Of a stretch of DNA of 64,000 nt, positions 43,430 to 64,000 are shown piece by piece. The position numbers were made by a program, and so were the translations under genes. Positions within the stretch are counted from its first letter, which is position 1. Each line of letters starts with the position of its first letter. Source of the DNA: an uncultured Rivularia sp. (GTDB taxonomy: Bacteria; Cyanobacteriota; Cyanobacteriia; Cyanobacteriales; Nostocaceae). The notes under the pieces were generated by a model. It was not told the DNA's origin. It did no database searches and saw only the letters and a list, made by a program, of their open reading frames with translations. Location: positions 1,376,001 to 1,440,000 of the forward strand of contig OY762007.1 of assembly GCA_963665115.1 (NCBI GenBank). The letters are read 5' to 3'.

Positions 43430-43472
43430 AGGCTTTTATTAAGGTACAAAAATCAATTTGATTTAAAAAAAA

Positions 43473-43957: not shown

Positions 43958-44036
43958 GTCGCAATAATGCAATAATAAAATATTGAAAAACAGAATATAG
44001 CTTAAAAATATTTAAAGATTTGGAGCAAGAGTTCGT

Positions 44037-46076: not shown

Positions 46077-46104
46077 GCAAGTAGTTAATTAATAAAAAAA
46101 ATTA

Positions 46105-47487: not shown

Positions 47488-47631
47488 TAAGCGATTTATC
47501 GCTTTGTCTAAGGGCTGAAGCCCTGACTACGAACCTTTATTTCTGATGGTGTAGTCAGGATTTTAATTCTTGGGAAAGAGACGCTAAAGCGCTTACTACG
47601 AAACTTTTTAACTAGTATGCGGAGGAAATAA

Positions 47632-48741
47632 ATGTTAGATGAATATGCAAGCAGCAATCAAATAAATGCTGATTCAGAAAATCCTTTAGTCAGCGTAATT
47701 ATTGGCAACTATAACTACGGTGGCTTTATTGCTGAAGCAATCGAAAGCGTTTTGCATCAAACATACAAAAATTTTGAATTAATAGTTGTAGATGATGGTT
47801 CAACAGATAATTCGCGAGAGATTATAAGCAGTTATCAAGATAAATTAACGGCGATATTTCAGAAAAATGGAGGGCAAGGTGCGGCATTTAATGCTGGATT
47901 TGCAGCTTCAAAAGGTGAGATTATTTGTTTTTTAGATTCAGATGATTATTATTACAAAACAAAATTAGCAAAAGTTGTAGAAGTGTTTAATCAAAATCCC
48001 GATTGGGTGCAAATTTCTCACGGTAGAACTTCAGTTAAGGCAGATGGAACAATTATCGGACGAGATCCAACTTTTTGCAATCAAGGTGATGTTACTCCTC
48101 TATTATTAAAATGGGGTAGATATGCTTGGGCGGTGACTTCAGCTTTAGCATATAGACGTTCGGTGTTAGAGAAAGTTTTACCTTTTCCCAAACGTCCCCG
48201 TGGAGGAGATACTTATTTAACTGCAACAGTACCTTTTTATGGAAACATCGGATATGTCAAAGAACCTTTAATGTTTTACCGACATCACGGTAATAATATG
48301 AATGCGGGAACCAATAATTTACAACATCTAATCGAACAGCGGGAAGATACAGCTAAATGTATAAATAAAGCTGCTCGTAAAATAGGAATAACAGAAACTT
48401 TTGATATTGCAAGAGATGCCGATTATCGCAGTTTAAAAGTAATAGAAAAAGGTGTGAGTTCTCCAAAAGAGGCGATTAAAATATTTTGGATAACCTGTCT
48501 CGAAAGTAGAGCTATAGGTCATAGTAGTAAAGATACTATCGAAAGATTTGTAAGAAGAGGTATATGTAGTTTATTTCCTCAAGAAGCAGATTTGTATTTA
48601 CGTTTAAAACTCCGGCTTTATCTCCATTTAAAGCTGATGGAATATCGCAATTTACTGTTGAGTCGAATACATCTGAAACCTCACCCTGATTCCCTTTCCT
48701 TGTTAAAAAGAAAGATGTCTAAAAGTGAGGCAAAGAAGTAA
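47632..48741 (+). CDS. glycosyltransferase family 2
   Basis: VSVII.NYN, VDDGSTD, FLDSDD. Confidence 0.93.
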   Translation: MLDEYASSNQINADSENPLVSVIIGNYNYGGFIAEAIESVLHQTYKNFELIVVDDGSTDNSREIISSYQDKLTAIFQKNGGQGAAFNAGFAASKGEIICFLDSDDYYYKTKLAKVVEVFNQNPDWVQISHGRTSVKADGTIIGRDPTFCNQGDVTPLLLKWGRYAWAVTSALAYRRSVLEKVLPFPKRPRGGDTYLTATVPFYGNIGYVKEPLMFYRHHGNNMNAGTNNLQHLIEQREDTAKCINKAARKIGITETFDIARDADYRSLKVIEKGVSSPKEAIKIFWITCLESRAIGHSSKDTIERFVRRGICSLFPQEADLYLRLKLRLYLHLKLMEYRNLLLSRIHLKPHPDSLSLLKRKMSKSEAKK

Positions 48742-48800
48742 ATGTCGCGTATCCAAATCAAACAACTAAACATTAGTGTATTTTTATTAAAAAGGCATCT

Positions 48801-50001
48801 ATGACAACTTCACTATCTAAAAATATAATATTTGATCAAAAGCAACCTCTAGCACAGAAACTATTAATCATACCGGGATATTGCGATGTTTTGGGAGGTA
48901 CAAATGTTAGTCTTTTAATGCTGGCTAAAGGATTTGCACTCTGTGGATTATCAGACAATTTATGCGTTTTAATTCAGAAAGATTCATTTCTGGAACATTA
49001 TTTTCGAGATGCAGGTTTGGATAATTGTGTAAAACTGATTGAAGCAGTTAATGCCAATCAATTTTTAAAAAAAGCACTGCGATGGGTAGGAAGACAACCG
49101 CAGGAATTTCCTTTACTGTTAGACAATTGTGTTTGGCGGAATTACTTACCAATACTGACATTATTCTCGCCATATCTTCGTTTGAGCGGGCGTAAACTCT
49201 ATCATTTTTGTCACGATTTGGCGTTGTCTTACAATAAACTGGGATATTTAGCCAGAAAGATAACTTTTGCCAGTCTTTCTCCCGGTGCCATTTGTAATTC
49301 ACAATTTACAGCAGAACATATTCGTGGTTTCATGCCGGATATTCGAGGAATTCTTTATCAACCTGTAGATTTTGAAAAGTTTAATATCCAAAGTGCAAGT
49401 AGCGCTCCTCCCGATAATTTGAAATCTATAATAAATTCTGGTGCGAGGATAATCCTTACTCCTTCGCGAATTAACAAACCTAAAATTGTTAACGACAAAA
49501 ATTTACGAGCATTAATTCCGGTATTGGCACATTTAAAAACAATGGGTGAAAATTATCATGCAGTTACTATGGGTGAAGATCAATCTCCCGGAAAGATTTA
49601 CAGCCAGGATTTAAGAGAAAGCGCCATTAATGCAGGAGTTGCAGACAGATTCACGATTTTACCCGCTGCTTTAAATATTGAAGATTATTACAAACGTGCA
49701 GATATAGTAGTTACCCTTGCTCCGCGAGAAACCCTTTGGGCGCACGGTTGTAGAAGCAATTGCTTGTAATGTGCCGGTAGTTGGTAGCAATACGGGTGGC
49801 ATTAACGAGATTTTGCAAAATTTTGCTCCTGAATGGACTGTCAACCCCGATGATTCTATGGAAGTAGCCAAAACCATTATTGATGTCACGAAAAATTCTC
49901 ATAAACAAGAGCTTTTAATAAAAGGTCAAAATTGGGTTGAAAATCAATGTAGCTTAGAAAATTATGCTTTAGGGATGATAAAGTTTACGGGTTTAAATTA
50001 G
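48801..50001 (+). CDS. glycosyltransferase family 4, +1 frameshift
   Basis: Removing one A at 49729-49731 gives LAPREPFGRTVVEAIAC.VPVVGS..GGI.E (EX7E motif). Confidence 0.88.
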
Positions 50002-50063
50002 TTATCGCTGACAAAATAATATTTAAATTTACGAATTATCCTAATTAAAGATATATTCTTTCT

Positions 50064-51194
50064 ATGAATAAAGTTATTTTTTTTTCAGGTGCAAATCCTC
50101 CCCAAACAGGAGGGGAACTCTACAACTTTAAACTTTCGCAATATCTAGAACAGCAAGGATGGCAACAAGAGTATGTCAGCTTGCATGAAAAAAGACATTA
50201 TTTGAGACTTAGCAAAATACCACTTTTTGGAGATATTATAGCTTCGCTTATATTCGCGATAATTTTGTTTAAATATAGGGGAAAAGGTATTTTAGTTGAA
50301 GATCATTATTTCAGTAAATATCTATTTTTAACAAATATTCTTCACCGCGTTTTATTTAAAAGTAAAATTGTTGTTATCGTACATCTTTTTTACAGTTATG
50401 ACAGTAGCGATAAATTTTTTATCAGAAGGTTTATTAACAGAACAATAGAAAAAATTAAATTATCCTTTGCCGATGTAATTATTACTAGCAGCGAATATTC
50501 TAAAAGCGAAATAGTTTCCGTAGGAATTAATCCCGACTCAGTTCATGTTTTATCACCTGGACTCGATCGAGAAAAATATAATATTTCATATTCATCTAAT
50601 AGATCGGATAGTAAAAAAATCTTATGTGTCGGTAATTACGTTCCGAGGAAAGGTATAATCTATGCGATCGAAGCTTTATCGCAAATAGAACGTCAAAATT
50701 ACAGCTTACATTTAGTAGGAAATCGTAAAAATAATTCTAGTTATTACAATCAATTAAACAATGCTGTAGAAAAACTTAAGTTAACAGAATGCGTCGTTTT
50801 TCACGATGGTTCAGATCAAGAAAATATTAAACAGTTGTATGCTTCTGCCGATATTTTTGTTCTGCCTTCATTCAAAGAAACCTTTGGGATTGTCTTTTTA
50901 GAAGCGATGCATTACGGATTACCAATAATTACAACAAATGTTTCGGCAATGCCAGAATTAATTGAAGAAGGTAAAAATGGTTTTTTAGTTCCACCCGCCG
51001 ATTCACAAGCTTTAGCCAAAGCTATATCAACATTAATTGAAAACCCTGATTTACGCAAACAAATGGGGGAGGCAGGGCGTAAGAAAGTTGCGGATTCTTA
51101 TTATTGGGAGCAGAGTGGTTTTAAGTTTGTTGCTATTCTTGAAAGTTTGAAGGGAGAGGGGGGAGAGGGGGGAGAGGGGAAAATTAATTTATAA
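50064..51194 (+). CDS. glycosyltransferase family 4
   Basis: VGN..PRKG, DIFVLPS..ETFGIVFLEAM. Confidence 0.93.
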   Translation: MNKVIFFSGANPPQTGGELYNFKLSQYLEQQGWQQEYVSLHEKRHYLRLSKIPLFGDIIASLIFAIILFKYRGKGILVEDHYFSKYLFLTNILHRVLFKSKIVVIVHLFYSYDSSDKFFIRRFINRTIEKIKLSFADVIITSSEYSKSEIVSVGINPDSVHVLSPGLDREKYNISYSSNRSDSKKILCVGNYVPRKGIIYAIEALSQIERQNYSLHLVGNRKNNSSYYNQLNNAVEKLKLTECVVFHDGSDQENIKQLYASADIFVLPSFKETFGIVFLEAMHYGLPIITTNVSAMPELIEEGKNGFLVPPADSQALAKAISTLIENPDLRKQMGEAGRKKVADSYYWEQSGFKFVAILESLKGEGGEGGEGKINL

Positions 51195-52612
51195 TTTATA
51201 ATTACCAATTACCAATTACCAATTACCAATTACCAATTACCAATTACCAATCCCCAATTACCAATTACCAATTCTTAACTAAAATGCAAATTTCGTCACT
51301 TGAGAAGACTGCAATTAAAGAAAAAACTTTTTCGCGGGATATTTTGGTTGTTTCGCGTACTTTTTTTCCGAAGGAAGGTGGTATTGAAGAGTATGTATAT
51401 AACCGCTGTCTGCAAAATCCTCAAGGAACAATTTTGTTAACAGCAACTTTTGCAGGTTATCAAGATTTTGATAAAAATCAAGAGTTTCCCATACATCGTT
51501 GGTATTTACCAAAAATACCTCGTTTGTTTGGTTTGGGAGCGATAATCAAACAAGTTTGGAATATGTTTTGGTCGTTTATTTTAGCAATTAAACTTTATTT
51601 TCGCTATGGCTATAGATGTATTGAGTGGGGACACGGTTACGATTTTCCTGCTATTTTCCTGTTAAGCTATATTCTACCTATTGAATTTTTTATCTACGTA
51701 CATGGCAACGATATTCTTTGTCCTTTGCGTAATCCCATATTGAAAAAATTATTTGAATTAACTTTGCAACGCAGTACGGGTATTGTTTGCAATAGTTCTT
51801 TCACGAGGGATTATCTCAGCGAAAAGTTTAATTTTAATTCTCCTACTTATGTAATTAATCCTATAGTTAGAGCAGACAAATTTGGCGTTAATGCTACAAA
51901 TCAACAGTATCTTGAAAATTCGCGGTTGAATATCCGTAAAAAATACAATATTCCTGAAAATGCAATCGTAATTCTTTCTGTGGGAAGATTGGTAAAACGT
52001 AAAGGTTTCGGACAAGTAATCGATAATCTAAATCAACTTTTAGAGCGAGGTTTAGATGTCCACTATATAATTTGTGGCAGAGGAAAAATGCAGTCCGAGT
52101 TAGAACAAAAAGCTTCTCAATTACAGCTTGCACAAAGAGTACATTTTGCCGGATTCGTATCTGATGCAGACTTAGCTGATTATTACGCAGCCTGTGACAT
52201 CTTCGCCATGCTGACGTTTTTTGATACCGAAAGCGCCAGTATAGAAGGATTTGGCATAGTTTACGCCGAAGCAGGTTATTTTGGTAAACCCGTAATCGCC
52301 TCCCGCGTCGGTGGTGTAGAAGATGCAGTACATCACGAAGAAAACGGTTTATTAGTCACTCCAAATTCCCCAGAAAAGATTTCCCAAGCATTGATTCGGT
52401 TGTGTGAAGACAAGCAACTTCGCGAAAAATTAGGAAGTAAAGGGATGGAGTTGGCAAGACAGTTAGCAGTTAACAGTGAGCAGTTATAAATTGGGCATGG
52501 GTAATTGGTAATTGGTAATTGGTAATTGGTAATTGGTAATTATAAATTAAATTTCCCCCCCCTCTCCCCCCTCTCCCCCATCTTCCCCCTCTTCCCCCTC
52601 TCTCCCCTCTCC
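51152..52612. repeat. inverted composite repeat arms (51152-51272 and 52500-52612) flanking a GT4 gene
   Basis: (GGGGGAGAG)n-AAATTAATTTATAATT-(ACCAATT)n on the left; near reverse complement on the right. Confidence 0.8.
51284..52489 (+). CDS. glycosyltransferase family 4
   Basis: SVGRLVKRKG, EGFGIVYAEA, PVIASRVGG. Confidence 0.93.
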   Translation: MQISSLEKTAIKEKTFSRDILVVSRTFFPKEGGIEEYVYNRCLQNPQGTILLTATFAGYQDFDKNQEFPIHRWYLPKIPRLFGLGAIIKQVWNMFWSFILAIKLYFRYGYRCIEWGHGYDFPAIFLLSYILPIEFFIYVHGNDILCPLRNPILKKLFELTLQRSTGIVCNSSFTRDYLSEKFNFNSPTYVINPIVRADKFGVNATNQQYLENSRLNIRKKYNIPENAIVILSVGRLVKRKGFGQVIDNLNQLLERGLDVHYIICGRGKMQSELEQKASQLQLAQRVHFAGFVSDADLADYYAACDIFAMLTFFDTESASIEGFGIVYAEAGYFGKPVIASRVGGVEDAVHHEENGLLVTPNSPEKISQALIRLCEDKQLREKLGSKGMELARQLAVNSEQL

Positions 52613-52615
52613 ATC

Positions 52616-54073
52616 ATGACTAAAATAAGTACTAAAAAAATAGCTTCAAGCGGCTTGTGGCTGACTGCTAGTTTCGGTTTTGCCAAAGTTTCTCAACTAG
52701 TTGCTCAAATATTTCTGGCGCGTCTTTTATCTCCTGAAGACTTTGGTGTTTGGGGTATGGTGCTGATTGTGACAACTCTTTCGGCTTTGTTTAAAGATGC
52801 TGCGATCGCGATGGTTTTGGTGCAGCGGGGTTTGGATGATAAAAAGCTGGTGAATGCTGTTTATAGCTTGGGTGTGAATATCTCTGTGGTGATGTTTGTT
52901 ATCCAAGCTTTGGCTGGTTTTCCCTTATCGAAATTTTTTGATGAACCTTTAGTCTTTCCGCTGACTTTAACTGTAGCCTGTATCTTTTTAATCGGTGCGG
53001 GTGCGGGTTCTCACGGTGCTGTATTGCAGCGACAAATGAAATTTAGGGAGTTGGCGATCGCCGATAGTTGTGCGGGATTTGCACGTTTTGCGGCTGCGGT
53101 GGTTTGTGCGTTTTTCGGTGGTGGAGTTTGGTGTTTTGCGGTTGCGGAAGTATTGATGTCTATAGTTGATGCTTTATTAAAACGTTATTTTAGCCGATAT
53201 CATTTTCAATATCATTTCAAACCAGATAAGCAAGCAATTCGTGAGGTGCGTGCTTATATTAGCAGCTTAATCGGAATTAATTTAGCTGTTTACGTCAATA
53301 CTAATGCCGATAATTTAATTATTGGTAGATTAATTGGAGCTACGTCTTTAGGTTACTACAATTTGGCTTATCAACTGGCTATGTTACCAACATTTGCTCT
53401 CTCGCAAATTAACCGCATTAACTTGTCGGTAATGTCGCAGCGAGATGATGATGGTAGAAAAATATACCTTTGTCAGATGTTGGAAATGTATGCTGTATTG
53501 TATGCTGCGGTTTACGGTGTGGGGTTTGTTGTTGCACCGTGGATTATTCCTTTAGTATATGGCAAGCAATGGATGGCAGCAGTAAGCATCTTTCAAATAG
53601 TGATGATTTTCGCTTATGCAAGAGGTTTTATGTCAATTCTTGGTACGGCTTTGAATGCTATAGATAAACCAAATATCAATGCTGCGATTAACTGGATTTT
53701 AGTACCGCTTTCCATTACGGCATTCTTTGTAGGAGCTAACTTGGGAGGAGTCAGAGGAGTGGCGATCGCTGTTGCTACGGTGATGGGTATTGGTGCAAGC
53801 GTCTGGTTTTGGTTGGCAGTAAGTTATGCTGCAAAATGGAATATTATGGACTTGTTTAAACCAGTAATATTACCAACTTTAACTATTACAATAGCGTTAT
53901 TAACTGTAATTAATCTTCCCCTATCAGCATCTGTACAAACTTTTATTCAACCATTTTTACTAATTTTAGTTTATGTAGTGGGATTATCAATATTTTCTAT
54001 GGGTAGAATTCCCAAATCATTCGTTAATTTAATTAAAGGTTCTTTAAATACCAAACAAGAGAGTAGCGAGTAG
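52616..54073 (+). CDS. Wzx-type polysaccharide flippase
   Basis: LARLLSPEDFG, D.LIIGRL.G...LGYYNLAY; ATG 52616 chosen because the upstream frame is repeat-derived. Confidence 0.9.
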   Translation: MTKISTKKIASSGLWLTASFGFAKVSQLVAQIFLARLLSPEDFGVWGMVLIVTTLSALFKDAAIAMVLVQRGLDDKKLVNAVYSLGVNISVVMFVIQALAGFPLSKFFDEPLVFPLTLTVACIFLIGAGAGSHGAVLQRQMKFRELAIADSCAGFARFAAAVVCAFFGGGVWCFAVAEVLMSIVDALLKRYFSRYHFQYHFKPDKQAIREVRAYISSLIGINLAVYVNTNADNLIIGRLIGATSLGYYNLAYQLAMLPTFALSQINRINLSVMSQRDDDGRKIYLCQMLEMYAVLYAAVYGVGFVVAPWIIPLVYGKQWMAAVSIFQIVMIFAYARGFMSILGTALNAIDKPNINAAINWILVPLSITAFFVGANLGGVRGVAIAVATVMGIGASVWFWLAVSYAAKWNIMDLFKPVILPTLTITIALLTVINLPLSASVQTFIQPFLLILVYVVGLSIFSMGRIPKSFVNLIKGSLNTKQESSE

Positions 54074-54290
54074 GGTGAAAAAGTAAAAGTTCGCAATAAG
54101 TTAACAGTTAACAATTAACAAAATTTGACAGCCATACAATAAGTTTATAAATCAATACAAACTCAAACGTATTTCTTAGCTCATATATCTAAAAAAAAAG
54201 TGCCTGATAAGCATATATAGAACCATCTAATTTCATGGTTCTAATTTTATATGTATTGCAAGATGTAACCTAATTATTCTATTTACTTAC

Positions 54291-55379
54291 ATGAAACAGC
54301 CCATAGTTGAGCAACCTTCTCAAGCTTCAGATAGACTTTTTTTCTTAGATTTTCTTAAAGCCTTAAGTATTATTGCAGTAGTATCATTTCATGCAATTTT
54401 TCTTCCTCGCACTACTTTTATAACCAGTGCTGGAACTATAGAAACTTTGTTTGCTCCCTTGAGATTCTGCGTTCCAGTTTTTCTAACTATTTCGATGTTC
54501 CTTTTTGAAAGACAAATTGCTAATTCTCCAGAAGAGCCAAAATTACTATTTAAAACACGTTTTAATCGTTTGGGAATTCCTATTTTATTTTGGTTTAGTA
54601 TTGCAGCAGGATTAAAGCTGATCGTTGGGAATTCTATTATAGAAGTTATCGTATCAATTTTCCAAGGAGAAATATTTACGGGTGCTTATTATTTTTTAAT
54701 AATTTTGCAGCTACTATGGAATTTTGTATTAGTTAGAGATTGGATAATTCAAGAAAAAAATATTGTCACCACATTGATTATTCAAGCAGTATGTTTATTG
54801 TTTGTTTATGCTACTATTAGCGGTTTTTTTGTAGATGAAGTTTTACAAGTTTTAGTATTTCTGGAACGTCCCTTAATTATTTATTGGCTTGCTTACATAG
54901 CTTTTGGCGTATATATTTATCAAAATTTTGACCGGATAGAGAGGATATCTCGTTCTTTAAGTAAAACCAATAAAATTTTGCTTTTATGCTTGACTGCGGC
55001 AACAATGATGGCTGAATACAGAGTATTAACTTTCTTTTTAGCAGATTCCTTACGTCCTTTCGATTATGCGGCATTTTCCTGTATCTTGAGCGTACCAACG
55101 ATGTTTATATGTTTTGCATCAGTCAACGAAAAAAGCTTTCCGTCACCAATAGTTAAACTAACAAAACTATTATCAAAATACAGCTTAGGGATATTTTGTA
55201 TAAACGGTATTTTAGCGCAAATATTTTTATCTATAGGTACAAGATTATTTAGTCAGGTAAATTTCAATCTTGCCGAAATACTTGGAATCAAAATTATCGG
55301 TTGGATTGGATTACTTTTATTATCGTTACTATTATCAATTATATTAAAACAATTGGGATTAAAAAAAGTTGTTTGTTAG
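54291..55379 (+). CDS. acyltransferase-3 (polysaccharide O-acyltransferase)
   Basis: R.FFLD.LKA.SI.AVV.FH, FCVPVF, SKYSLGIF; multi-TM. Confidence 0.85.
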   Translation: MKQPIVEQPSQASDRLFFLDFLKALSIIAVVSFHAIFLPRTTFITSAGTIETLFAPLRFCVPVFLTISMFLFERQIANSPEEPKLLFKTRFNRLGIPILFWFSIAAGLKLIVGNSIIEVIVSIFQGEIFTGAYYFLIILQLLWNFVLVRDWIIQEKNIVTTLIIQAVCLLFVYATISGFFVDEVLQVLVFLERPLIIYWLAYIAFGVYIYQNFDRIERISRSLSKTNKILLLCLTAATMMAEYRVLTFFLADSLRPFDYAAFSCILSVPTMFICFASVNEKSFPSPIVKLTKLLSKYSLGIFCINGILAQIFLSIGTRLFSQVNFNLAEILGIKIIGWIGLLLLSLLLSIILKQLGLKKVVC

Positions 55380-55422: not shown

Positions 55423-56664
55423 CTAATCCCACTCTAATTTAAGACTTGCATAACCACGGTCTATTAATGTGGGAACACGATTTAATTCTTGGTTGGGAGT
55501 AATTCGTAAATTAGGCAATCTCTGAGATAATACTTCTAAAGTAATACGCGTTTCTCGACGAGCTAAGTCGAAACCCGTACAGTGATGTTTTCCATGACTG
55601 AATGCGAGATGGTTGACCGGAGCGTCTTTGAAACGTTCGATATCAAAGCGTTCGCTATCTTTGAATTGCTCGGAATCCCGGTTTGCTGAACCGAAAAGTA
55701 AAACCACCCGGCTATCTTTTGGTATTGTCGTTCCTGATACACTAACTTCTTGAGTGGTAACTCGAACCATTGATTGAACTGGTGTATCGTATCTCAGGAC
55801 TTCTTCAAGAGCAATGGGAATCAATGATGGATTTTCGTGTAAACTTTGCCATGTTTTCTGATCTTCTACTAACAGTTTGATTGCGGTTTCAATTAAACTT
55901 GCAGTTGTCTTATGTCCGGCTATAATAACTTCACATAAAAGTAAAACTTGTTCCGGTAATGTGAGGTCGCTGCTTTGTAGTTGGCCGATTAAATCGTTGC
56001 TAGGAGTGGAACTTTGTTTTTCGATTAAGCTAGCAAAATAATATTGTAACTCAACAAAGCTTTTAGCACATTCGATTTGACGTTCCGGTGTTAAAGGTGT
56101 TGAAAATAAAGCTGAGGTGCTATTTCCACAATGTTTTACGAATTCCATTTTTTCTAAAGGTACTCCGCACATTGTAAAAATAACTTCGAGGGGTAGTGGA
56201 TGAGCAAATTGCGATACGATTTCTACTTTGCCATCATTAATAAAATTATCTACCAATCTCGACGTAATAGTACGAATGGAGTCTTCTTCTTTGATCAGCC
56301 GCTCTGGTGCGAATGCTTTTGCAAAAGGAGTGCGTAACCGTTTATGTTGTTTCCCATCGCTATTAATTACTGAAACGAAGGGAAATCCTTGATGCATCAC
56401 TTCTATCACTTCTGGAGTTAAATCTCCAGCATTCTGAAGACTCTTAGCTGAAGAATATATTTTAGGATTTTTTAATATATTTAAAACATCTTCGTATCTT
56501 GTTATTACGTAAGCTTTCAATAATTCGCTGTAAAATACTGGTTGCTCATTTCTGGCACGTTGATAAAACGGATAGGGATTTTCAAGTTGTGGATTGGAAA
56601 AAGGTTGATATTCTTCTCCTGCATGAAAAGGGCAAATATTCTTTGTCATTTTATTGGTATCCAT
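55423..56664 (-). CDS. cytochrome P450 (atypical I-helix AGHKT)
   Basis: EEVLRY (EXXR), SANRD, HLAFSHGKHHCTG heme-Cys. Confidence 0.95.
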   Translation of the reverse strand: MDTNKMTKNICPFHAGEEYQPFSNPQLENPYPFYQRARNEQPVFYSELLKAYVITRYEDVLNILKNPKIYSSAKSLQNAGDLTPEVIEVMHQGFPFVSVINSDGKQHKRLRTPFAKAFAPERLIKEEDSIRTITSRLVDNFINDGKVEIVSQFAHPLPLEVIFTMCGVPLEKMEFVKHCGNSTSALFSTPLTPERQIECAKSFVELQYYFASLIEKQSSTPSNDLIGQLQSSDLTLPEQVLLLCEVIIAGHKTTASLIETAIKLLVEDQKTWQSLHENPSLIPIALEEVLRYDTPVQSMVRVTTQEVSVSGTTIPKDSRVVLLFGSANRDSEQFKDSERFDIERFKDAPVNHLAFSHGKHHCTGFDLARRETRITLEVLSQRLPNLRITPNQELNRVPTLIDRGYASLKLEWD

Positions 56665-56728
56665 TGTTCAATAGTATGAAAGTTTATTAATAGTTTTTAG
56701 CGATTCCAGATTCTGCATACCTCTTTAA

Positions 56729-56758
56729 ACTTATAGAGGTGTAAATTTTCAATTATTC
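56729..56758 (-). promoter_or_regulatory. cluster motif copy: GAATAA-N14-CTCTATAAGT
   Basis: Same spacing as the copies before four other cluster genes. Confidence 0.5.
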
Positions 56759-57304
56759 ATTGACGCTTGAAGATTGTGAAGTTTGAACGTTGATAGAGGT
56801 ATTACCTTTGGCTTTACTTAAACCATGCATCATCATAAAAGCGCCTAAGAGGATAAACACGCTTACAGTTCTCAAACCTATAGTTGCTAAAATTTCCATC
56901 CAAAATACTCCTCCGGGATAACCCTTGGCGGTAACGACAAAGCTTTGGGTAAGACCAAATATGGCAGCAAAAACTTGGATTGTAAGACCTGTGTAGGCAC
57001 TGGGGACAAAAAACCAAAATAATAGTTTAGTCCGTAATTGGGTGAAGCAACCGTAGGGAATAGCCATCCCCACAGCCATAGTCAGCAGTCCTAACATTAC
57101 GCCCAAAGTATGAGCAGAAAGTCCTCCTCTGGGATTGATATAAAAAGGTATGAACAAAGGTGCAATACAGCCTAATGAAAAAATACTAAAACCATGCCAT
57201 AGAAATCTACGTCGATACTCCCCAATCTCAAGTTGGCTCAATAAATTGGGCGTTGTAGATGATGAATTTATATTATTAGTTTGGTCAAATGTATTAGCTT
57301 GCAT
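56753..57304 (-). CDS. 4-TM membrane protein resembling styrene-oxide isomerase (StyC) family
   Basis: RRFLWHG...NPRGGLSAHTLGVMLG.L..AVG matches the StyC-like HG...P.G..AH....G pattern; size (183 aa) and topology similar. Confidence 0.55.
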   Translation of the reverse strand: MQANTFDQTNNINSSSTTPNLLSQLEIGEYRRRFLWHGFSIFSLGCIAPLFIPFYINPRGGLSAHTLGVMLGLLTMAVGMAIPYGCFTQLRTKLLFWFFVPSAYTGLTIQVFAAIFGLTQSFVVTAKGYPGGVFWMEILATIGLRTVSVFILLGAFMMMHGLSKAKGNTSINVQTSQSSSVNE

Positions 57305-57354
57305 TTTTTACCTCAAATGATTATTTGTTATTGTTCAATTGTAGAAATCGGAAA

Positions 57355-58377
57355 TTACCCATGCTGACATTCAATAATGGTGCAGGGGGATTGAGTTTTT
57401 ATAATGTTGGTAACTTGTAAACCTGCTTTTTGTGCAAGTTTTACCAACTCATCTTGAGTGCGTACCCACGCCCCTGGATGGGTAATTAACAACTGCAAAT
57501 CTAGAAAGGTTGCAAAAGATGATTCTTGAGAACAAACAATCGGATCTATAATTAATAGTCTGCTATCCTTGGGCATCGCCTGTTTACAGTTGCATAAAAT
57601 TTTTATGGCTTGTTCGTCGTTCCAATTGTGGATAATTTGCTTGAGAACATAAATATTCCCTCCCGTGGGTACGGAAGTAAAAAAGTCTCCCTCAACCATC
57701 TCATAGCTTTTATGACTACTGGCTTGATTCCGGGCAATAACTGATGGTAGTTCAAATAAAACACCACTCATGGTAGAGTCAGCTTCTAAAATCGAAACTA
57801 ATAAACTTCCGTCTCCCCCGCCCAAATCAATTATTTTAGACTCGGAGGGGAAATCATAAGCTGCTAAGACAGCACGATTAATAATAGTGGAATAGTTTTT
57901 TAATCCCGCTTTGAAAGTCGCAAACTGTTCTGGATTTTGCTTGAAGTAGTCAGGCAGCGGCATTCCTAATTGAGCGCTTACACCAGAAGCCCCAGTTTTG
58001 AGGGCAGTAAACATACCTCCCCAAGCCTGCCATAACCATTGCTCGCCTTCTAAGATAACCGCATCACGTACCGAATCTGGAAAATCCGATTGCAAATATT
58101 CCGTCATCTGGGTGTTGGCAAAGTATGAAGGAGCGGATTCGGTAAAAATACCGTTACTTGCTAAGGCTCGCAGTATACGATATAGAGATTGGGTTTCGAC
58201 TTCTGTAGATTGGGCTAGCTCATCGATAGCTTTTGCACCATCTTTGAGTAAATCGGCAATGCCAAGTTTAGCGGCAACGTAAATTCCTTGACTAATGTGA
58301 TGACCAGTTAGCATTTGCATTAACTGTTCGGGAAATTGTTTTACGTTTTTGTCATCGCTCGTTTTGAGTGTAAACAT
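57355..58377 (-). CDS. SAM-dependent O-methyltransferase (Methyltransf_2 with dimerisation domain)
   Basis: AAKLGIADLL, IDLGGGDG, GDFF.SVP, KQIIHNW.D. Confidence 0.92.
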   Translation of the reverse strand: MFTLKTSDDKNVKQFPEQLMQMLTGHHISQGIYVAAKLGIADLLKDGAKAIDELAQSTEVETQSLYRILRALASNGIFTESAPSYFANTQMTEYLQSDFPDSVRDAVILEGEQWLWQAWGGMFTALKTGASGVSAQLGMPLPDYFKQNPEQFATFKAGLKNYSTIINRAVLAAYDFPSESKIIDLGGGDGSLLVSILEADSTMSGVLFELPSVIARNQASSHKSYEMVEGDFFTSVPTGGNIYVLKQIIHNWNDEQAIKILCNCKQAMPKDSRLLIIDPIVCSQESSFATFLDLQLLITHPGAWVRTQDELVKLAQKAGLQVTNIIKTQSPCTIIECQHG

Positions 58378-58471
58378 TTTAATTAGTATTTCATAAGTGA
58401 ATTACGACAGATTATGGTTAGCGATATTTAATGTATTCGCGTTTGCCTTACTGGTTTATTTACCGCTTTAT

Positions 58472-58501
58472 ATTAGTAGAGGTAGGTTTTTTTATTTATG
58501 C
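58472..58501 (-). promoter_or_regulatory. cluster motif copy: GCATAA-N14-CTCTACTAAT
   Basis: Upstream of the O-methyltransferase. Confidence 0.55.
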
Positions 58502-58533
58502 TCCATTTCTATTTGAAATAACTACGATTCTCC

Positions 58534-58575
58534 GGAGCATCCCAATTGTGGAAAAATGCAAATTTGGGATGCTCC
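58534..58575. repeat. GGAGCATCCCAA...TTGGGATGCTCC hairpin
   Basis: 12-bp perfect inverted repeat just after the P450 stop. Confidence 0.7.
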
Positions 58576-58596
58576 TTGATTCTCTTCAAAGCTGCA

Positions 58597-59844
58597 TTAA
58601 TCCCACTCTAAATTAAGACTTAGATAACCACGATTGGTTAATATTGGCGAATGATGCAATTCTTGGTTAGGAGTAATTCGTAAATTTGGCAATCTTTGAG
58701 ATAGTACTTCCAGAGAAATTCTTACTTCTCTTCGAGCCAGGTTGAAACCCGTACAGTGATGGGTTCCGTGACCAAATGCTAAATGGTCAACCGGAGCATC
58801 TTTGAAACGTTCGATATCGAAGCGATCGCCATTTTCATACTTTTGAGAATCTCGGTTAGCCGAAGCATATTGTATAAGCAAGCGACTATCTTCAGGGATT
58901 GTTACTCCTGAGATGGTGACTTCTTGAGTTGCAACCCGAACCATTGATTGGGCTGGTGAATCGTATCGGAGTACTTCTTCGAGAGCTATAGGAATCATTG
59001 ATGGGTTTTGATGTAAGCTTTGCCATGTATCTGGATTATCTAAAAGTAATTTCAAAGCTTTACTCATTAAATTTGCACTGGTTTTATGTCCGGCTATAAT
59101 CATTTCACATAACAGTAAACCGATTTCCATTGCTGTCAGTTCGCTTGTTAGTAATTCACTAATTAAGTCGTCACCGGGAGCCGAACGTCGTTTTTCGACT
59201 AAACTTACTATGTAATGCTGTAAAGTAACAAAACTTCTAGCGCATTCTATTTGACGTTCTGGTGTTAATTTTGACGAGAAGAACAGCCCTACATCATTAC
59301 CACTCTTTTTTACCTGTTCCATCTTTTCTAAAGGTATCCCATACATACTTAAGATGACTTCGAGGGGTAATGGATGACCAAATTTTGATACAATTTCTAC
59401 ACTGCCATCATTAATAAAATTATCTACTAATCTATTCGCGATCGCATAAATTGAATCTTCTTTTTTAGCTAAGTTCTCTGGTGCAAATACTTTGAGAAAA
59501 GGGGCACGCAAACGTCTATGTTGTTCGCCATCACTATTAATTAAAGATGTAAAAGGAAAGCCTTCTTCTAATACTTTTTGGGTTTCTGGAGTCACATTTT
59601 GAGCGGTTTGCAGACTTTTCGCTGATGAAAATACTGTAGGACTTTTAAGGATATGTAATACATCTTCGTACCGTGTAATTACATAAGCATCTACCACCGG
59701 GCTATAAAATACAGGTTGTTCATTTCTGGCTCTTTGTAAAAATGGGTAAGGATTTTCAAGTTGCTCCCCAACAAAAGGTTGAAATTCTTTTCCATGAAAC
59801 GGACAAGCACTAGTCGCAGATTGTGTCTTATTTTGTTCAATCAT
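58597..59844 (-). CDS. cytochrome P450 (atypical I-helix AGHKT), paralogue of 55423-56664
   Basis: EEVLRY, SANRD, HLAFGHGTHHCTG; long shared segments and identical LEWD end. Confidence 0.95.
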   Translation of the reverse strand: MIEQNKTQSATSACPFHGKEFQPFVGEQLENPYPFLQRARNEQPVFYSPVVDAYVITRYEDVLHILKSPTVFSSAKSLQTAQNVTPETQKVLEEGFPFTSLINSDGEQHRRLRAPFLKVFAPENLAKKEDSIYAIANRLVDNFINDGSVEIVSKFGHPLPLEVILSMYGIPLEKMEQVKKSGNDVGLFFSSKLTPERQIECARSFVTLQHYIVSLVEKRRSAPGDDLISELLTSELTAMEIGLLLCEMIIAGHKTSANLMSKALKLLLDNPDTWQSLHQNPSMIPIALEEVLRYDSPAQSMVRVATQEVTISGVTIPEDSRLLIQYASANRDSQKYENGDRFDIERFKDAPVDHLAFGHGTHHCTGFNLARREVRISLEVLSQRLPNLRITPNQELHHSPILTNRGYLSLNLEWD

Positions 59845-59920
59845 TTCTATTTATTGGTAGTTGGTAATTGGTCAAAGGTCACAAATATTAACTAACTATC
59901 TGTAATTCTGTTCTTAATTA

Positions 59921-59950
59921 ATCTATAGGGGTGAGAAAATTTATTTATGC
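59921..59950 (-). promoter_or_regulatory. cluster motif copy: GCATAA-N14-CCCTATAGAT
   Basis: Upstream of the P450 starting at 59844. Confidence 0.6.
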
Positions 59951-60100
59951 AATCAATCTGCTGTAAATTATTCAATTATTTCAACTTCTCCTACAGTTTT
60001 TTCTATTACCACTATTAACTAAAAATCCCTACATCTTTATTAGACAACGGAGGGGGTAGAAATCCAATTACCAACTCCCAATGCCCAATCCCCAATTTAT

Positions 60101-61381
60101 TCATACACTATCGTGTCCCCACAAACCTTTTGCATCCCTGGGCGAACTAAAGCCTACTTGTAAATGCTTTGGCCCGTGGAAGACTATATTATTTGCCCAT
60201 TCAATTGATTCTTCTTTCAAAGTCAAATTCGGCAATCGATTTATTAAAGTGTTTAATGCAATGGTGACTTCAGCACGGGCTAAACTTGAACCCAAGCAGA
60301 AATGAATACCGCTTCCGAAACCGCTATGCTTAGTTGCTTCTCGTTGAAAATTTAATTCGTCGGGGTTTTCAAACTGTTCCTCATCTCTATTAGCGGAACC
60401 CAAAATCAAACCAACGCTATCGCCGCGCTTAATTATCTTCCCGTCAATTTCAAAATCTTCATAAGCCCAACGACTAACCATTTGCACCGGGGAATCATAT
60501 CGAACCAACTCTTCTACTGCTGCGGGAATTAATTCGGGGTGCGATCGCAACAGTTTCAACTGCTTGGGATGACGCAATAGAGCCAATATTCCCTTACTTA
60601 TCAAATTAACTGTAGTTTCGTGACCTGCTGTTAATAAGTGTATGCAGGTAGCTAATATTTCCTCGTCATTTAATTTATTTCCTTCATCTCTTGCCTTAAC
60701 TAAAGCTGTAATTAAATCCTTTCCCGGCTCAACGTGTCTTTTAGCAATTTCCTTTTTGAAATATTCAATAAATCCTTGAGTTGCTGCTTCAGCTTGTTCG
60801 TACACTTCCGGGGATGGTGTCAAACGACTGGCGCTAGCGTGTTGTAGAGCTAAGGCCCATTGTCGGAATAGTGGTCTGTCCTTGGGGTCAACACCCAACA
60901 TATCGGCAATTACCATAATCGGTAAAGGGAAAGCAAAATCTTCAACTAAATCCATTTCCCCTTGCAGATGAACTTTATCTAATAGACAATCAGCTATTCC
61001 GATAATGGCAGGCCTCAAATTTTCCACCATCTTGGCAGAAAATACTTTATTAACAATAGTTCTTAATCTTGTATGAGTTGGTGGATCTCGGAACACCATC
61101 CAATTACTCACCATCGAACTAAATCCCCGATAAGCCTTCGGTACGGGTGCCCCTTCACCATCATCTCGTACCTTGCTAGCTTCTCTACCAAACTTCGGAC
61201 TTTCCATTACTTTCATCACATCCCGGTATCGGAATAGATACCAAGCACCATCTAATTTAGGATTTGCAGAAAGCCCCCAATGTACTGGATCTTCTTTTCT
61301 ATAAAGACTGTAATAAGTATAAGGGTCGCTAATTACTTCTTTGACAAATGGATTTAATCTTTCAATTGTAGAAATTGACAT
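60101..61381 (-). CDS. cytochrome P450 (canonical AGHET)
   Basis: DPP.HTRLR, LLTAGHETT, EELVRY, FGSGIHFCLG. Confidence 0.96.
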   Translation of the reverse strand: MSISTIERLNPFVKEVISDPYTYYSLYRKEDPVHWGLSANPKLDGAWYLFRYRDVMKVMESPKFGREASKVRDDGEGAPVPKAYRGFSSMVSNWMVFRDPPTHTRLRTIVNKVFSAKMVENLRPAIIGIADCLLDKVHLQGEMDLVEDFAFPLPIMVIADMLGVDPKDRPLFRQWALALQHASASRLTPSPEVYEQAEAATQGFIEYFKKEIAKRHVEPGKDLITALVKARDEGNKLNDEEILATCIHLLTAGHETTVNLISKGILALLRHPKQLKLLRSHPELIPAAVEELVRYDSPVQMVSRWAYEDFEIDGKIIKRGDSVGLILGSANRDEEQFENPDELNFQREATKHSGFGSGIHFCLGSSLARAEVTIALNTLINRLPNLTLKEESIEWANNIVFHGPKHLQVGFSSPRDAKGLWGHDSV

Positions 61382-61413
61382 TTTTGCTCGCAGAGATTTT
61401 TTATTCCTTATTT

Positions 61414-61445
61414 ATTCATAGGGGGTGAGGGGTTGGAGATTATGC
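61414..61445 (-). promoter_or_regulatory. cluster motif copy: GCATAA-N16-CCCTATGAAT
   Basis: Upstream of the P450 starting at 61381; the spacer contains C runs that may be over-called. Confidence 0.55.
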
Positions 61446-61821
61446 AATTTTTAGTTGGGAGTTAGGAGTTAGGAGTTAGGAGTTAGGTATTAAGAATGAA
61501 AAAATTAGTTTGTAGGTTGGGTTAAAAGCACGAATAATATGTCTGCTCCCACTCAATATTTAACTCACGCTTTTAACCCAACATCCAGATTTTGGTTATA
61601 GATTATGAAGTGGCGATCGCCGCATTATGGTGATGTTGGTTAATTTTATTTTTCGGAGCCAGATGGTAAGTGCGTCTTTAACCCAACTTACTTTCCTATT
61701 TTCTATACAACCTCAAATACAAGAGAGACGTAGCAGTGCTACGTCTCTACAACATGGTGGGTTATTTACGAATAATTTTATTTCTGTTCCCCGTTCCCTT
61801 TTTCTGTAATTATCATATATG

Positions 61822-63059
61822 CTAAAATTTACCAGATTTGACATTGATGAATAAGCTGAAGATTACGATTGAGATTATACTCACAGCAGCACCGATGAAA
61901 CAAACTGCTGCGATTCCTCCGATACCAAATATGATTCCTGCAAATACCGGGGGCCGATTGCTCTACCAAGTGATTGAGTTGTGACGTTGAGAGACATGAA
62001 ACCAGAACGGTATTCTTGAGGAGCAAGTTTAGCGATGGATGATTGAAGGGTAGGAAATGCTAGAGCTTCAACTAATCCGATGAGTACAGAGGGGATTACC
62101 AACATAGGAATTGAATCAACTGTGGGAATGATGCATAAAGCAACTGCGAAGATGACGAAGGATACTTGAATTAATTTGATTTCAGAAACTTTGTGAGCGA
62201 ATAAGGTGACGAAGAAGGAGAAGACTGCTAAAGATAAAGCGTTTGTCGTTAATACCATTCCAATTACCGCGCTCGTTGCTCCCAGATTCTCTCCTGCGAA
62301 GACTGGAGTGAAGGTATAGAATGCTCCAAATTCAACCATGAATAAGGTAATTACCGCAGAAAACAACAGTAAAACATTTCGATTTTGAATACTTTTAAAT
62401 ATATTTTTAACGTAGCTACCAAGTTGAAATTTCTCAGTATGCTTTTGTGTTTTAGGCAATTTAAGTTTTAAGCCTACTAGTAATGCAACCGGAATAGCTA
62501 ATAATGATAGTGCGAACGGGTATCTCCAATTTAAAGAAGCTAACACTCCTCCTAACATAGGATAAATAGTTGAACCCACACCGATTGCACCTCCATTGAA
62601 AGCCATTGCAGCCGTTAATTTGTTCCCACTATATGAGCTACTAATTATTGAAAGTACCAGAGCCTCTAAAGAAGCACCACCAAGTCCCTGTAAAATTCTC
62701 CATTCTATAAGAGAGCGGAAGTTGGGAGCGAAAGCACATAAAACACCACCCAGAGCAAATACAAGTAAGGAAGGAATCAAAATTTTCTTAAAGCCAAAAC
62801 GGTCAGCTAAAACCCCGAATATTGGTGTTCCAATTGCAACTGGCATTAGATAAGCTGCCATAATCAATCCCGATTGTTGGGGAGAAATATTTAATCCTGT
62901 AGCTATAGTAGAAAGAATTGGACTTATGCTGAACAAAGGCATAATTGCTATCATCGTTATACTGACAACAAATAACAGATTTTTATCTTGAAAAATATTG
63001 CCTTTTGATTGTTCTGCTCTACCTGCTTGAGAATTAATTGGTTTTAATGGTGTAGTCAT
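61822..63059 (-). CDS. MFS (DHA1-like) efflux transporter, frameshift near the C-terminus
   Basis: G.LADRFG.K and WRILQGLG motifs; correcting the G run at 61949-61953 gives GPVFAGIIFGIGG...SGKF* at 61822 and restores the last TM segments. Confidence 0.88.
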
Positions 63060-63306: not shown

Positions 63307-63360
63307 GCTTAAAAATAATATTGGTTTAAAACTTAGTATTCCACCACACTAATTTTAAAG

Positions 63361-63405
63361 GGTTCGTAGTAGCGTGCCCGCCAGGGCATAGCGCTACTAC
63401 GAACC
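63361..63405. repeat. palindromic dispersed repeat GGTTCGTAGTAGCG...CGCTACTACGAACC
   Basis: 14-bp arms; related units at about 29566, 31809 and 47484-47602. Confidence 0.75.
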
Positions 63406-63524
63406 TAATTTATTGCAATCGGAATTACAGCAAGTGCCATAACACACCCTACTCTAGACGTAATAATCTCTTTTCTTTACACTGATGAGATAAAGAAATA
63501 AATTTTCATTTATAGAGATGATTT

Positions 63525-64000
63525 ATGGTTGCGTCAATTAAACGAGTTGCTTTAGTCGGTGGAACTCATGGTGGGGAACTTACGGGAGTATTTTTAGTTA
63601 ATAAATTTCAACAATCTCCGCAACTGATTCAACGAGATGGGATTGAAACAATTAGTTTAATTGCTAACGAAAAAGCTGTTGCTATAGGGACAAGATATAT
63701 AGATACAGATTTGAATCGAGCTTTCAACCGTCAAGAATTAGAAAATCCCCAATTAACCAATCACGAGCAATCATTAGCCAAAAAAATAACTCGCCGAATT
63801 AAAGAAGAGAAAATTGATTTAATCATTGACTTGCACAGCACAACAGCAAATATGGGATTAACGATAATTTTGCACTCGAATCATCCTTATTTAACCAAAT
63901 TGGCTGCATATCTTACACAAATTAATTCTAAAGTCAGAATATTACAACACACTCTTAATAAAGAATCATCTTACTTGATAAGCTCAGCGGAATTCGGAAT
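63525..64000 (+). CDS. aspartoacylase family protein, truncated by the window edge
   Basis: Manual translation: VALVGGTHGGELTG...RYIDTDLNR.F...IIDLHSTTANMG. Confidence 0.9.
   Translation, partial: MVASIKRVALVGGTHGGELTGVFLVNKFQQSPQLIQRDGIETISLIANEKAVAIGTRYIDTDLNRAFNRQELENPQLTNHEQSLAKKITRRIKEEKIDLIIDLHSTTANMGLTIILHSNHPYLTKLAAYLTQINSKVRILQHTLNKESSYLISSAEFG

Follow-up and report, generated by a model that had tools for sequence, protein, structure and literature searches.

The six co-oriented genes at positions 55423-63059 form the second part of a split gene cluster for an indolocarbazole pathway of the staurosporine type, from which rebC is absent. They lie near the end of the 64,000-nucleotide stretch of contig OY762007.1 from an uncultured Rivularia sp. 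that was analyzed here as a whole (the window). Judged from the encoded proteins, and with a probability of roughly 0.6, their products would turn a bisindole derived from tryptophan into what we predict to be an undescribed methoxy-indolocarbazole, by closing, oxygenating and O-methylating it, and would export it. The product is likely a hydroxylated and O-methylated indolocarbazole, possibly one that is ring-opened like the 6-cyano-5-methoxy compound of Nostoc. The genes concerned are the following.

55423-56664, minus strand, second Lys-type tailoring P450 gene (413 aa)
56753-57304, minus strand, four-helix membrane protein gene of the SOI/HabB family (183 aa; PF26512)
57355-58377, minus strand, COMT-type SAM methyltransferase gene (340 aa; PF00891 and PF08100)
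58597-59844, minus strand, first Lys-type tailoring P450 gene (415 aa; CYP116B/CreJ-like)
60101-61381, minus strand, StaP/RebP-type P450 gene (426 aa; best PDB match 2z3t)
61881-63059, minus strand, MFS exporter gene (392 aa; PF07690)
63525-64000, plus strand, 5' part of an aspartoacylase-family gene continuing beyond the window (286 aa; NF002601 above cut-off)
G000:C1:1440533-1440748, minus strand, outside the window, peptidoglycan-binding gene (71 aa)
G000:C1:1442872-1443534, minus strand, outside the window, GST gene
G000:C1:1443736-1447054, minus strand, outside the window, RebD/StaD chromopyrrolic acid synthase gene (TIGR04492)

As an earlier note on this DNA had described, the six open reading frames are co-oriented and meet a convergent EPS operon. 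All six are on the minus strand, and the operon ends at 55379, leaving a gap of 43 bp. The upstream terminator of that note is a different matter: the hairpin at 63355-63415 (-33 kcal/mol) is a dispersed repeat, since the genome contains 45 copies of its 12-mer arm and the terminator scan (4 sites vs 5.6 expected) does not list it. Altogether the scan for promoters and terminators gave no excess over shuffled sequences. The six-gene interval contains no PKS, NRPS, cyclase or ferredoxin gene, as previously stated; the absence of a ferredoxin gene is uninformative because the genome holds 15 Fer2 matches. Nor is there an obvious precursor peptide, no conserved small ORF of at least 20 aa being present beside the P450 genes. 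A P450-modified RiPP cluster was rejected, as no conserved small ORF family (70-aa floor) was found in the block across related loci. The GC content of 38-41%, against 37.9% genome-wide, gave no signal of foreign origin.

The StaP-type P450 and the dispersed core genes

The best PDB match of the 60101-61381 P450 is 2z3t (E 1.8e-109, 369 bits; next match 288 bits), an entry itself named 'Cytochrome P450' which we take to be StaP. Its H248 aligns with H250 of 2z3t, and the HLLTAGHET motif, I-helix His included, is found in 47 of the 50 members of the StaP-type family. By these sequence features the protein is a StaP/RebP orthologue of the indolocarbazole synthase type, which by prediction forms the bond between the C2 carbons of both indoles in chromopyrrolic acid. 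The cluster had earlier been regarded as scaffold-less, with tailoring functions for all three P450s. One of the three is StaP, the ring-closing core enzyme, and rebD/staD is located 3.7 kb past the end of the window, so that the apparent absence of a scaffold enzyme is a window-edge artefact. The suggestion of a pathway that builds its product from a primary metabolite was right in outline, the metabolite being tryptophan, and wrong in its premise that no scaffold enzyme exists.

Every indolocarbazole cluster keeps three genes, encoding RebO, RebD and a P450 (PMC10851217), and all three families (RebO, RebD and the StaP-type P450) are present in this genome. The core genes are not contiguous here: rebD and staP are 6.4 kb apart and separated by other genes, and the genes are distributed over three loci. 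Such dispersal is also seen in relatives, and the aspartoacylase-family gene that separates the two cluster halves holds the same position in five related loci. Within 10 kb of the StaP relative in 48 loci we found rebD in 23, rebC in 16, rebO in 15, GST in 31 and a Lys-type P450 in 31; the peptidoglycan-binding family occurred in 23 of the 48. A second P450 at C1:3711428 (38% identity to StaP) and a second ferritin-like match at C1:5088858 had no bisindole genes nearby.

The StaP orthology and the consistent linkage to rebD, rebC and rebO leave hardly any room for the idea that the six genes are independent of rebD and serve detoxification or the tailoring of a terpenoid or other external scaffold, options raised in the earlier note. 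The nearest relatives of the Lys-type P450s, CYP116B and CreJ, are indeed broad-substrate or catabolic enzymes, and StyC and HabB are catabolic as families, yet neither option is supported.

The rebD gene matches TIGR04492 with E 1e-162, below the VioB cut-off, and was found in 18 of the 24 genus relatives searched, in most of them as a single open frame of about 1100 aa. Two RebO-like oxidase genes (PF01593, LAAO-like, with tryptophan as predicted substrate) are located elsewhere in the genome, the nearest 276 kb from the cluster. One of them adjoins a trp operon (trpE/G, A, B, D and DAHP synthase), and both products are 59-76% identical to oxidases encoded within 14 related clusters. For rebC the best genome-wide tblastn match had 25% identity (E 4e-8), with nothing at 1e-20, and a search with the FAD_binding_3 family gave no strong full-length RebC candidate near the cluster loci. 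The spacing between rebD and the GST gene is 201 bp here, a slot in which three relatives carry rebC.

In this assembly rebD is split into 141 and 975 aa by a one-base frameshift, and the MFS frame shifts near 61950 with replacement of the last predicted helix (three-frame reading), giving 392 aa vs approximately 411 in relatives; the MFS of locus L018 has this out-of-frame tail as well. Taken together with the lack of rebC, these shifts could be read as a pathway decaying in this lineage, with rebC deleted and the tailoring genes as relics, which we find very improbable. The rebD shift (L006:8638) is present in the assembly and in sequencing run X2, but the contigs of runs X3 and X4 lack one base at this site, so that two of the three covering runs are unshifted, and X3 is otherwise letter-identical over rebD. 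In the window, the five ORFs that code for enzymes have their full length and keep the haem Cys, ExxR and SAM motifs intact. Furthermore, unrelated genes nearby are also split (a glycosyltransferase at 48801-50001, trpA and an ABC transporter), a pattern that points to an error of assembly or a mixture of strains. For an extra C after GG as a systematic assembly error, the ratio was 0.39, against 0.25 and 0.13 in the small sets used for comparison.

Two P450s with lysine at the I-helix acid position

In both remaining P450s a K-T pair replaces the canonical I-helix acid-alcohol pair (E/D-T), while the haem Cys and ExxR are kept. The 58597-59844 P450, with 29-32% identity to 6kbh and 5xjn, has Lys254 at the acid position and Glu247 at the position of the StaP His. 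The motif was AGHKT in 87 and AGHET in 5 among the 120 homologues listed. Without the I-helix acid, protons should be delivered more slowly, to the advantage of peroxo chemistry.

The 55423-56664 P450 is 69% identical to its neighbour and falls in a different sub-clade (quick tree, P450 pieces below 380 aa excluded). Its gene has 74% DNA identity to the paralogue and 80% to the second P450 gene of locus L012. A recent tandem duplication was rejected, considering the 74% DNA identity and the separate sub-clades, each gene being nearer to genes of other genomes.

Among 400 other genomes of the order, taken without selection, a Lys-type P450 was found in 4, rebD in 6 and both in 3; the fourth genome with a Lys-type P450, the one without rebD, is 89% complete. 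By this co-occurrence the Lys-type P450s travel with rebD. They are not dedicated partners of the methyltransferase, since 20 of 26 genus relatives carry a Lys-type P450 and all of those 20 are without the methyltransferase. Mostly they are found in clusters that contain rebC and lack the methyltransferase/HabB cassette described below.

The methyltransferase and its four-helix partner

The best PDB match of the methyltransferase is 6c5b (E 2.6e-63), presumably LaPhzM, and the catalytic His is kept in an IIHNW motif. Since 78% of characterized COMT-type enzymes are O-methyltransferases (PMC10784701), these features together point to a likely phenol O-methyltransferase. An orthologue (93%) is found in only 1 of 26 other genomes of the genus. 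The methyltransferase and this HabB sub-clade co-occur in every locus that has either of them (the present locus, L018, L039, L040 and L067). Each time the cassette is adjoined by an oxygenase, be it a Lys-type P450, another CYP or a Rieske enzyme; these three families are unrelated, and the variety fits a generic step that makes a phenol.

rebC is present in 17 of the 18 rebD-bearing genus relatives, and the sole exception, genome G413, is also the sole relative sharing this methyltransferase. G413 and our genome may be one lineage, in which case the loss of rebC along with the methyltransferase cassette may have been a single event. The coincidence could mean that the methyltransferase stands in for RebC and traps the unstable StaP product through N- or carboxyl-methylation, the P450s hydroxylating later, since both rebD-bearing, rebC-less genomes of the genus carry it. 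Enzymes of the RedM/EspM type act so in the RebC-free reductasporine and erdasporine pathways, and RedM is a COMT-type N-methyltransferase of a rebC-less cluster (PMC10784701). We nevertheless regard this as improbable, because the methyltransferase keeps the His that RedM lacks, no entry named RedM appears among its 41 PDB matches at E 1e-25 or better, and locus L040 carries both rebC and the methyltransferase/HabB cassette, against a link with rebC loss.

The four-helix protein had been called StyC-like, a description that holds at the superfamily level (PF26512, SOI) and not for the catalytic residues. No match was obtained in single-sequence Pfam, NCBIfam and PDB searches, and profile searches reached SOI weakly (E 3 and 0.02). 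The AF2 model has four long helices and its top Foldseek match is 8pnu (StyC; prob 1.00, E 4e-3). The likeness to StyC, and putatively to HabA/HabB, comprises the four-helix fold, PF26512 and the axial haem His: H65, which all 113 aligned sequences share, corresponds to H58 of SOI, and the protein is predicted from this and the model to bind haem b. StyC and HabB are catabolic enzymes, and the context of StyC and HabA/HabB is catabolic, in contrast to the biosynthetic context here. The label hydroxylaminobenzene mutase (HabB) rests on automatic JGI/NCBI names of homologues. At 18% identity to SOI, the positions of the catalytic network N64, D95, N99 and Y103 (PMC11374702) are not kept, being L71, S102, G106 and Q110 in an ungapped register of a weak alignment (E 0.02).

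Proposed pathway and related systems

We propose that the RebO-like oxidase encoded beside the trp genes oxidizes tryptophan, a role we infer for a gene that is present, that RebD, by homology, makes chromopyrrolic acid, and that the StaP orthologue closes the carbazole ring. In the absence of RebC/StaC, 7-hydroxy-K252c is reported as the main product (PMC11350588). The two Lys-type P450s, with a housekeeping ferredoxin as donor, would then likely oxygenate the core, and the HabB/SOI-like haem protein would likely rearrange an N-hydroxy or arene-oxide intermediate to a phenol, the weakest step of the scheme. The methyltransferase likely caps the phenol, and the MFS protein would export the product.

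The combination had not been recognized among characterized cyanobacterial pathways, but the tjp cluster of Fischerella ambigua 108b and Symphyonema bifilamentata (PMC7497240) is the closest known system. Matched by annotated family (PMC7497240 Table 1S), it contains RebO-, RebD- and RebP-like proteins together with a GST (Tjp3), a methyltransferase (Tjp4) and a HabB-like protein (Tjp5). It differs by its tryptophan halogenase Tjp10 (0 PF04820 matches in our genome, which is 99.9% complete), its split RebC (Tjp7/8) and its azoreductase, both without counterpart in our locus, and by a Tjp4 that resembles StaMB where our methyltransferase is COMT-type; our genome differs from tjp further by the two extra Lys-type P450s and the distribution over three loci. 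None of the tjipanazoles described in the parts of PMC7497240 covered here is methylated despite the methyltransferase and HabB-like genes, so this pairing need not yield a methyl ether.

The reb and sta systems share the RebO/StaO, RebD/StaD and RebP/StaP core; our locus differs by lacking RebC/StaC and sugar genes or a glycosyltransferase linked in the same orientation, and by its other tailoring set. The RebC-free red (reductasporine) and esp (erdasporine) clusters, and those of the hydroxylated arcyriaflavin F, hydroxysporine and BE-13793C, combine an ODP core with dedicated post-StaP enzymes, as here. Late ring hydroxylation is performed there by EspX, AcfX or the P450s HysX1/X2, and, as we predict, here by a Lys-type P450 with an SOI/HabB-like partner; neither an imine reductase nor an EspX-type flavoprotein is present in this locus.

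The lost I-helix acid should, on general grounds, favour peroxo chemistry, which bears on a different outcome: a RebC-free opening of the pyrrolinone by the tailoring enzymes, which would give 6-cyano-5-methoxyindolo[2,3-a]carbazole or a congener. The substrate would be 7-hydroxy-K252c. Its ring-chain tautomer, with formyl and amide groups, would be deformylated by a ferric-peroxo P450 to a C5 phenol, the Lys-for-acid P450s cleaving the C-C bond; the SOI-fold haem protein would turn the nitrogen-bearing carbon into a nitrile, or shift an N-hydroxyl, and the phenol would be methylated. The tjp authors likewise expect Tjp3-6 (GST, methyltransferase, HabB-like protein, azoreductase) to cleave the pyrrolo ring from a 7-hydroxy-type hemiaminal (PMC7497240). 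Nostoc sphaericum EX-5-1 contains the 6-cyano-5-methoxy compound, which needs an O-methyltransferase, as well as the 12-N-methyl form of it (PMC6572111), and with the calothrixins of Calothrix they are likewise cyanobacterial indolocarbazole-related metabolites; a gene cluster for either was not found in the literature searched, and the tie to our locus is hypothetical. Calothrixins are not known to carry a methyl group. The Nostoc loci L039 and L040 hold this methyltransferase, the HabB sub-clade, a Rieske oxygenase, a GST and a second methyltransferase, two methyltransferases being what the 12-N-methyl compound needs. We still consider ring opening rather unlikely, as an oxygenase that varies over three unrelated families is not expected for a specialized C-C cleavage, and the Lys-type P450s reside mostly in rebC-bearing clusters without the cassette.

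Within one cyanobacterial genus indolocarbazole clusters are common, and they also occur throughout the heterocystous cyanobacteria and in some others; tjp is the only cyanobacterial one tied to products in the literature searched. They carry swappable tailoring modules, so that natural gain/loss pairs exist. With methoxylation of a RebC-free core as the preferred reading, the locus is a five-enzyme system that bears on the function of the acid-to-lysine exchange in P450s, on the biosynthetic role of SOI/HabB-fold haem proteins, Tjp5 included, and on the making of methoxy or ring-opened indolocarbazoles without RebC. If ring opening were true, it would provide the enzymes still missing from the routes to ring-opened cyanobacterial indolocarbazoles (the Nostoc cyano-methoxy compounds, tjipanazole D and perhaps a calothrixin precursor), and the SOI/HabB family would gain its first role in biosynthesis.

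Core genes in and around the six-gene block

All six co-oriented genes listed in the earlier note were found as minus-strand ORFs, and the exopolysaccharide operon is convergent with the block, as claimed, at a distance of 43 bp.

Genes of the block (window coordinates) and core genes beyond the window end (contig C1, on which the window spans G000:C1:1376001-1440000).
61881-63059, minus strand: MFS
60101-61381, minus strand: P450 (StaP orthologue)
58597-59844, minus strand: P450 (Lys-type)
57355-58377, minus strand: methyltransferase
56753-57304, minus strand: membrane protein, 183 aa
55423-56664, minus strand: P450 (Lys-type)
C1:1443736-1447054, same strand as the block, beyond the window end: VioB/RebD-family gene (rebD)
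C1:1442872-1443534 (L006:4872-5534), next after rebD: GST

The hairpin proposed as an upstream terminator is real and lies 5' of the MFS gene, but it is a dispersed repeat (a 12-mer arm has 45 matches genome-wide) and is not among the terminators called in a scan. The exopolysaccharide operon (window 42905-55379) encodes an Alg14/Alg13-like pair, a chain-length protein, a polymerase, glycosyltransferases, a flippase and a PF01757 acyltransferase; in the related locus L014 such an acyltransferase and flippase adjoin that locus's P450 block.

The description of the block as scaffold-less does not hold. The P450 at 60101-61381 has its best PDB match in 2z3t (E 1.8e-109, 369 bits; runner-up 288), an entry titled only 'Cytochrome P450' that we take to be StaP. 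Beyond the window, rebD and the GST gene follow on the same strand; between them and the MFS gene are genes for an aspartoacylase and a small protein of the peptidoglycan-binding type, along with several unrelated ones. Elsewhere in the genome, two RebO-like amine oxidases (C1:1154116 and C1:8538937) show 59-76% identity to oxidases within 14 related clusters. The former neighbours DAHP synthase, trpE/G, trpA, trpB, trpD and genes flanking staP in relatives, from which we infer that the block has probably moved out of this locus. The scaffold-less look arises because the cluster is split and the window ends between its parts. The lack of a local ferredoxin says little, because the genome has 15 Fer2 matches. 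RebO, RebD and a P450 are the genes kept in every indolocarbazole cluster, according to the excerpted text of PMC10851217. From their sequences, the genes very probably specify the route from tryptophan through an imine and chromopyrrolic acid to an indolocarbazole, and an unrelated function of the six genes is scarcely credible beside the StaP match and the linkage to rebD.

The oxidase/trp locus (L057:9116-19560 and L058; G000:C1:1154116-1187328) combines the RebO-like oxidase with a copy of the trp operon and genes for DAHP synthase, a porin, a caspase-like protein, two Tll0287/HAMP proteins, a protein of the phosphonate-binding type and an MFS extended at its C-terminus; this set also flanks staP in many relatives. 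Directly upstream of rebD (L006:9256-20000 and L007:1-1108) lies Cas6, followed by a series of genes resembling RAMP/Cas7 and Cas10, labelled CRISPR-like, type III, by eye on translations. An apparent biosynthetic cluster at L007:11473-19999, likewise identified by eye, comprises chorismate mutase/prephenate dehydrogenase-like, Coq4-like and FabH-like ketosynthase genes, a thiamine-dependent enzyme, an acyl-CoA ligase and ABC exporters.

Related loci, rebC and reading frames

Scanning with the StaP orthologue as query returned 49 loci, mostly titled Rivularia, Calothrix, Scytonema, Nostoc, Fischerella, Chlorogloeopsis or Chamaesiphon, and 48 once a 32% paralogue (L056) was dropped. Within up to 10 kb per side of staP, many contigs being shorter, we found rebD in 23 of the 48, rebC (labelled from a 643-bit match to RebC 2r0c) in 16 and rebO in 15. 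A GST, a family represented by Tjp3 in the tjipanazole (tjp) cluster, was among the most constant accessory genes (31/48). Oxygenases were represented by Lys-type P450s (31/48), Rieske proteins (8/48) and another CYP (6/48); the window's HabB sub-clade and methyltransferase family each occurred in 3 loci and a second HabB sub-clade in 6. Among 400 other, unselected genomes of the order, 4 had a Lys-type P450, 6 rebD and 3 both, a descriptive count as kin are not independent. In the genus, rebD was present in 18/24, rebC orthologues in 19/26 and Lys-type P450s in 20/26 relatives, and the window's methyltransferase in one of 26, G413, whose locus L086 encodes proteins identical to those of L018, so the two were counted once.

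A stand-alone peptidoglycan-binding-domain gene (PF01471, 70-76 aa, 1 to 6 tandem copies) lies inside 23 of the 48 loci (for example L072:7574-9743, L045, L051-L054 and L006:2533-2748); could it serve product binding or self-protection? Two Chamaesiphon-titled loci (L037:12857-16256 and L035:5904-9014) carry rebD-rebC-GST-staP-MFS, to which L037 adds rebO, and then a tandem pair of FAD monooxygenases (PF01494), a layout similar to that of the indolotryptoline (cladoniamide/BE-54017) pathways. The Aetokthonos hydrillicola-titled L044:1684-14436 holds a full rebO-D-C-GST-staP-VOC-P450-Rieske cluster.

Of 18 rebD-bearing genus relatives, only G413 is without rebC. The window's genome also lacks rebC: 201 bp separate rebD from the GST gene, at a place where rebC immediately follows rebD in G403, G419 and G421, and a search of this genome for a rebC remnant found none. 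StaP without RebC/StaC is reported to give a mixture, 7-hydroxy-K252c foremost (PMC11350588, in excerpt). That the methyltransferase traps the StaP product is improbable.

The assembly's rebD is broken at about codon 141; in most relatives from the genus the gene is a single open frame of some 1100 aa. At L006:8638, contigs of sequencing runs X3 and X4 are one base shorter, X3 being otherwise identical across the portion of rebD covered, whereas X2 agrees with the assembly, i.e. the shifted form (X1 gave no contigs; all four runs are from one study). The data therefore contain both intact and shifted rebD, owing either to error or to a mixture of strains. The MFS gene appears to shift frame near 61950, and the L018 MFS ends in the same out-of-frame tail. 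Decay of the pathway is very unlikely. A glycosyltransferase, trpA, an ABC transporter, a second MFS and a DOPA-dioxygenase-like gene are also split by frameshifts in the assembly (window 48801-50001; L057:15714-16530; L007:7665-9480; L058:12500-14173; L006:4300-4600), several at short C/G runs.

Tailoring genes

The 183-aa membrane protein belongs to PF26512, and its homologues carry the automatic name hydroxylaminobenzene mutase. Its suggested likeness to StyC is borne out at superfamily level: four long helices make up the predicted structure (pLDDT 89), and the top Foldseek match is styrene oxide isomerase (SOI) 8pnu (probability 1.00, E 4e-3, 18% identity). H65, the sole invariant residue across 113 aligned sequences, aligns with SOI H58, a haem ligand (excerpts of PMC11374702 and PMC12502698); none of SOI N64, D95, N99 and Y103 is kept in the alignment. 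The protein is likely a haem b rearrangement catalyst, though not one that isomerises styrene oxide. Its family is rare: among 401 genomes of the order, 3 carry a copy, which in one case is broken and distant. The window's sub-clade always adjoins the methyltransferase family (own locus, L018, L039, L040, L067); the second sub-clade is found without it.

Sequence comparison shows the tailoring block to be a mosaic. At the DNA level, its methyltransferase-HabB stretch is 92-96% identical to those of L018 and L067, in which a different CYP stands between it and staP; the P450s at 58597 and 55423 show 85% and 80% identity to the second P450s of L009 and L012, respectively. At the StaP-His position many relatives pair one Gly-type with one Glu-type P450, and the window's locus has two Glu-type P450s from two sub-clades of a quick tree. 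Both carry Lys (K254, K252) at the usual proton-relay acid position; among 120 listed homologues, 87 have AGHKT and 5 AGHET. The nearest solved structures, CYP116B haem domains and CreJ, share about 30% identity, and function is therefore not transferable.

Proposed pathway and known systems

We put a probability of roughly 0.6 on a pathway in which the Lys-type P450s would oxygenate the indolocarbazole, the haem membrane protein would rearrange the oxygenated intermediate to a phenol, the methyltransferase would O-methylate this phenol and the product would be exported. Actinobacterial and metagenomic pathways are described in which flavoproteins or a pair of P450s hydroxylate the ring at a late stage (bioRxiv 2024.04.17.589956, in part); for BE-13793C, the excerpt of PMC7024260 names no hydroxylase. 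Against the proposed pathway, Lys-type P450s mostly occur without the window's methyltransferase, and the tjipanazoles described in the available part of PMC7497240 are unmethylated although tjp has the methyltransferase Tjp4.

The tjipanazole cluster is the closest known system. Table 1S of PMC7497240 annotates Tjp3 as GST, Tjp4 as methyltransferase, Tjp5 as HabB-like and Tjp6 as azoreductase, and that paper assigns to Tjp3-6 an expected cleavage of the pyrrolo ring, with the hemiaminal tjipanazole J as starting point. From Nostoc sphaericum EX-5-1 come 6-cyano-5-methoxy-12-methylindolo[2,3-a]carbazole and the corresponding nor-N-methyl compound (PMC6572111, in excerpt), and the Nostoc-titled L039:24-11272 and L040:2-11272, with a HabB-like gene, a Rieske oxygenase, a GST and two methyltransferases, are candidates for the former pathway. 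Ring opening to a cyano-methoxy product is unlikely for the window's locus: three unrelated oxygenase families adjoin the methyltransferase-HabB pair, and ring hydroxylation is therefore preferred.

The full tjp cluster was in no other genome in a 2021 cblaster screen (PMC8065813, as excerpted), and the window's genome has no halogenase. The open literature, a scope outside which most subscription papers lie, yielded no description of the window's gene set, and neither it nor the excerpted calothrixin review (PMC4728514) yielded a calothrixin gene cluster. The cluster class is already known to mining tools, because in Chlorogloeopsis PRISM marks clusters as 'maleimide indolocarbazole' (PMC11392904, in part). 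Overall, the locus represents a novel version of the known indolocarbazole pathway, and its enzymology is testable.
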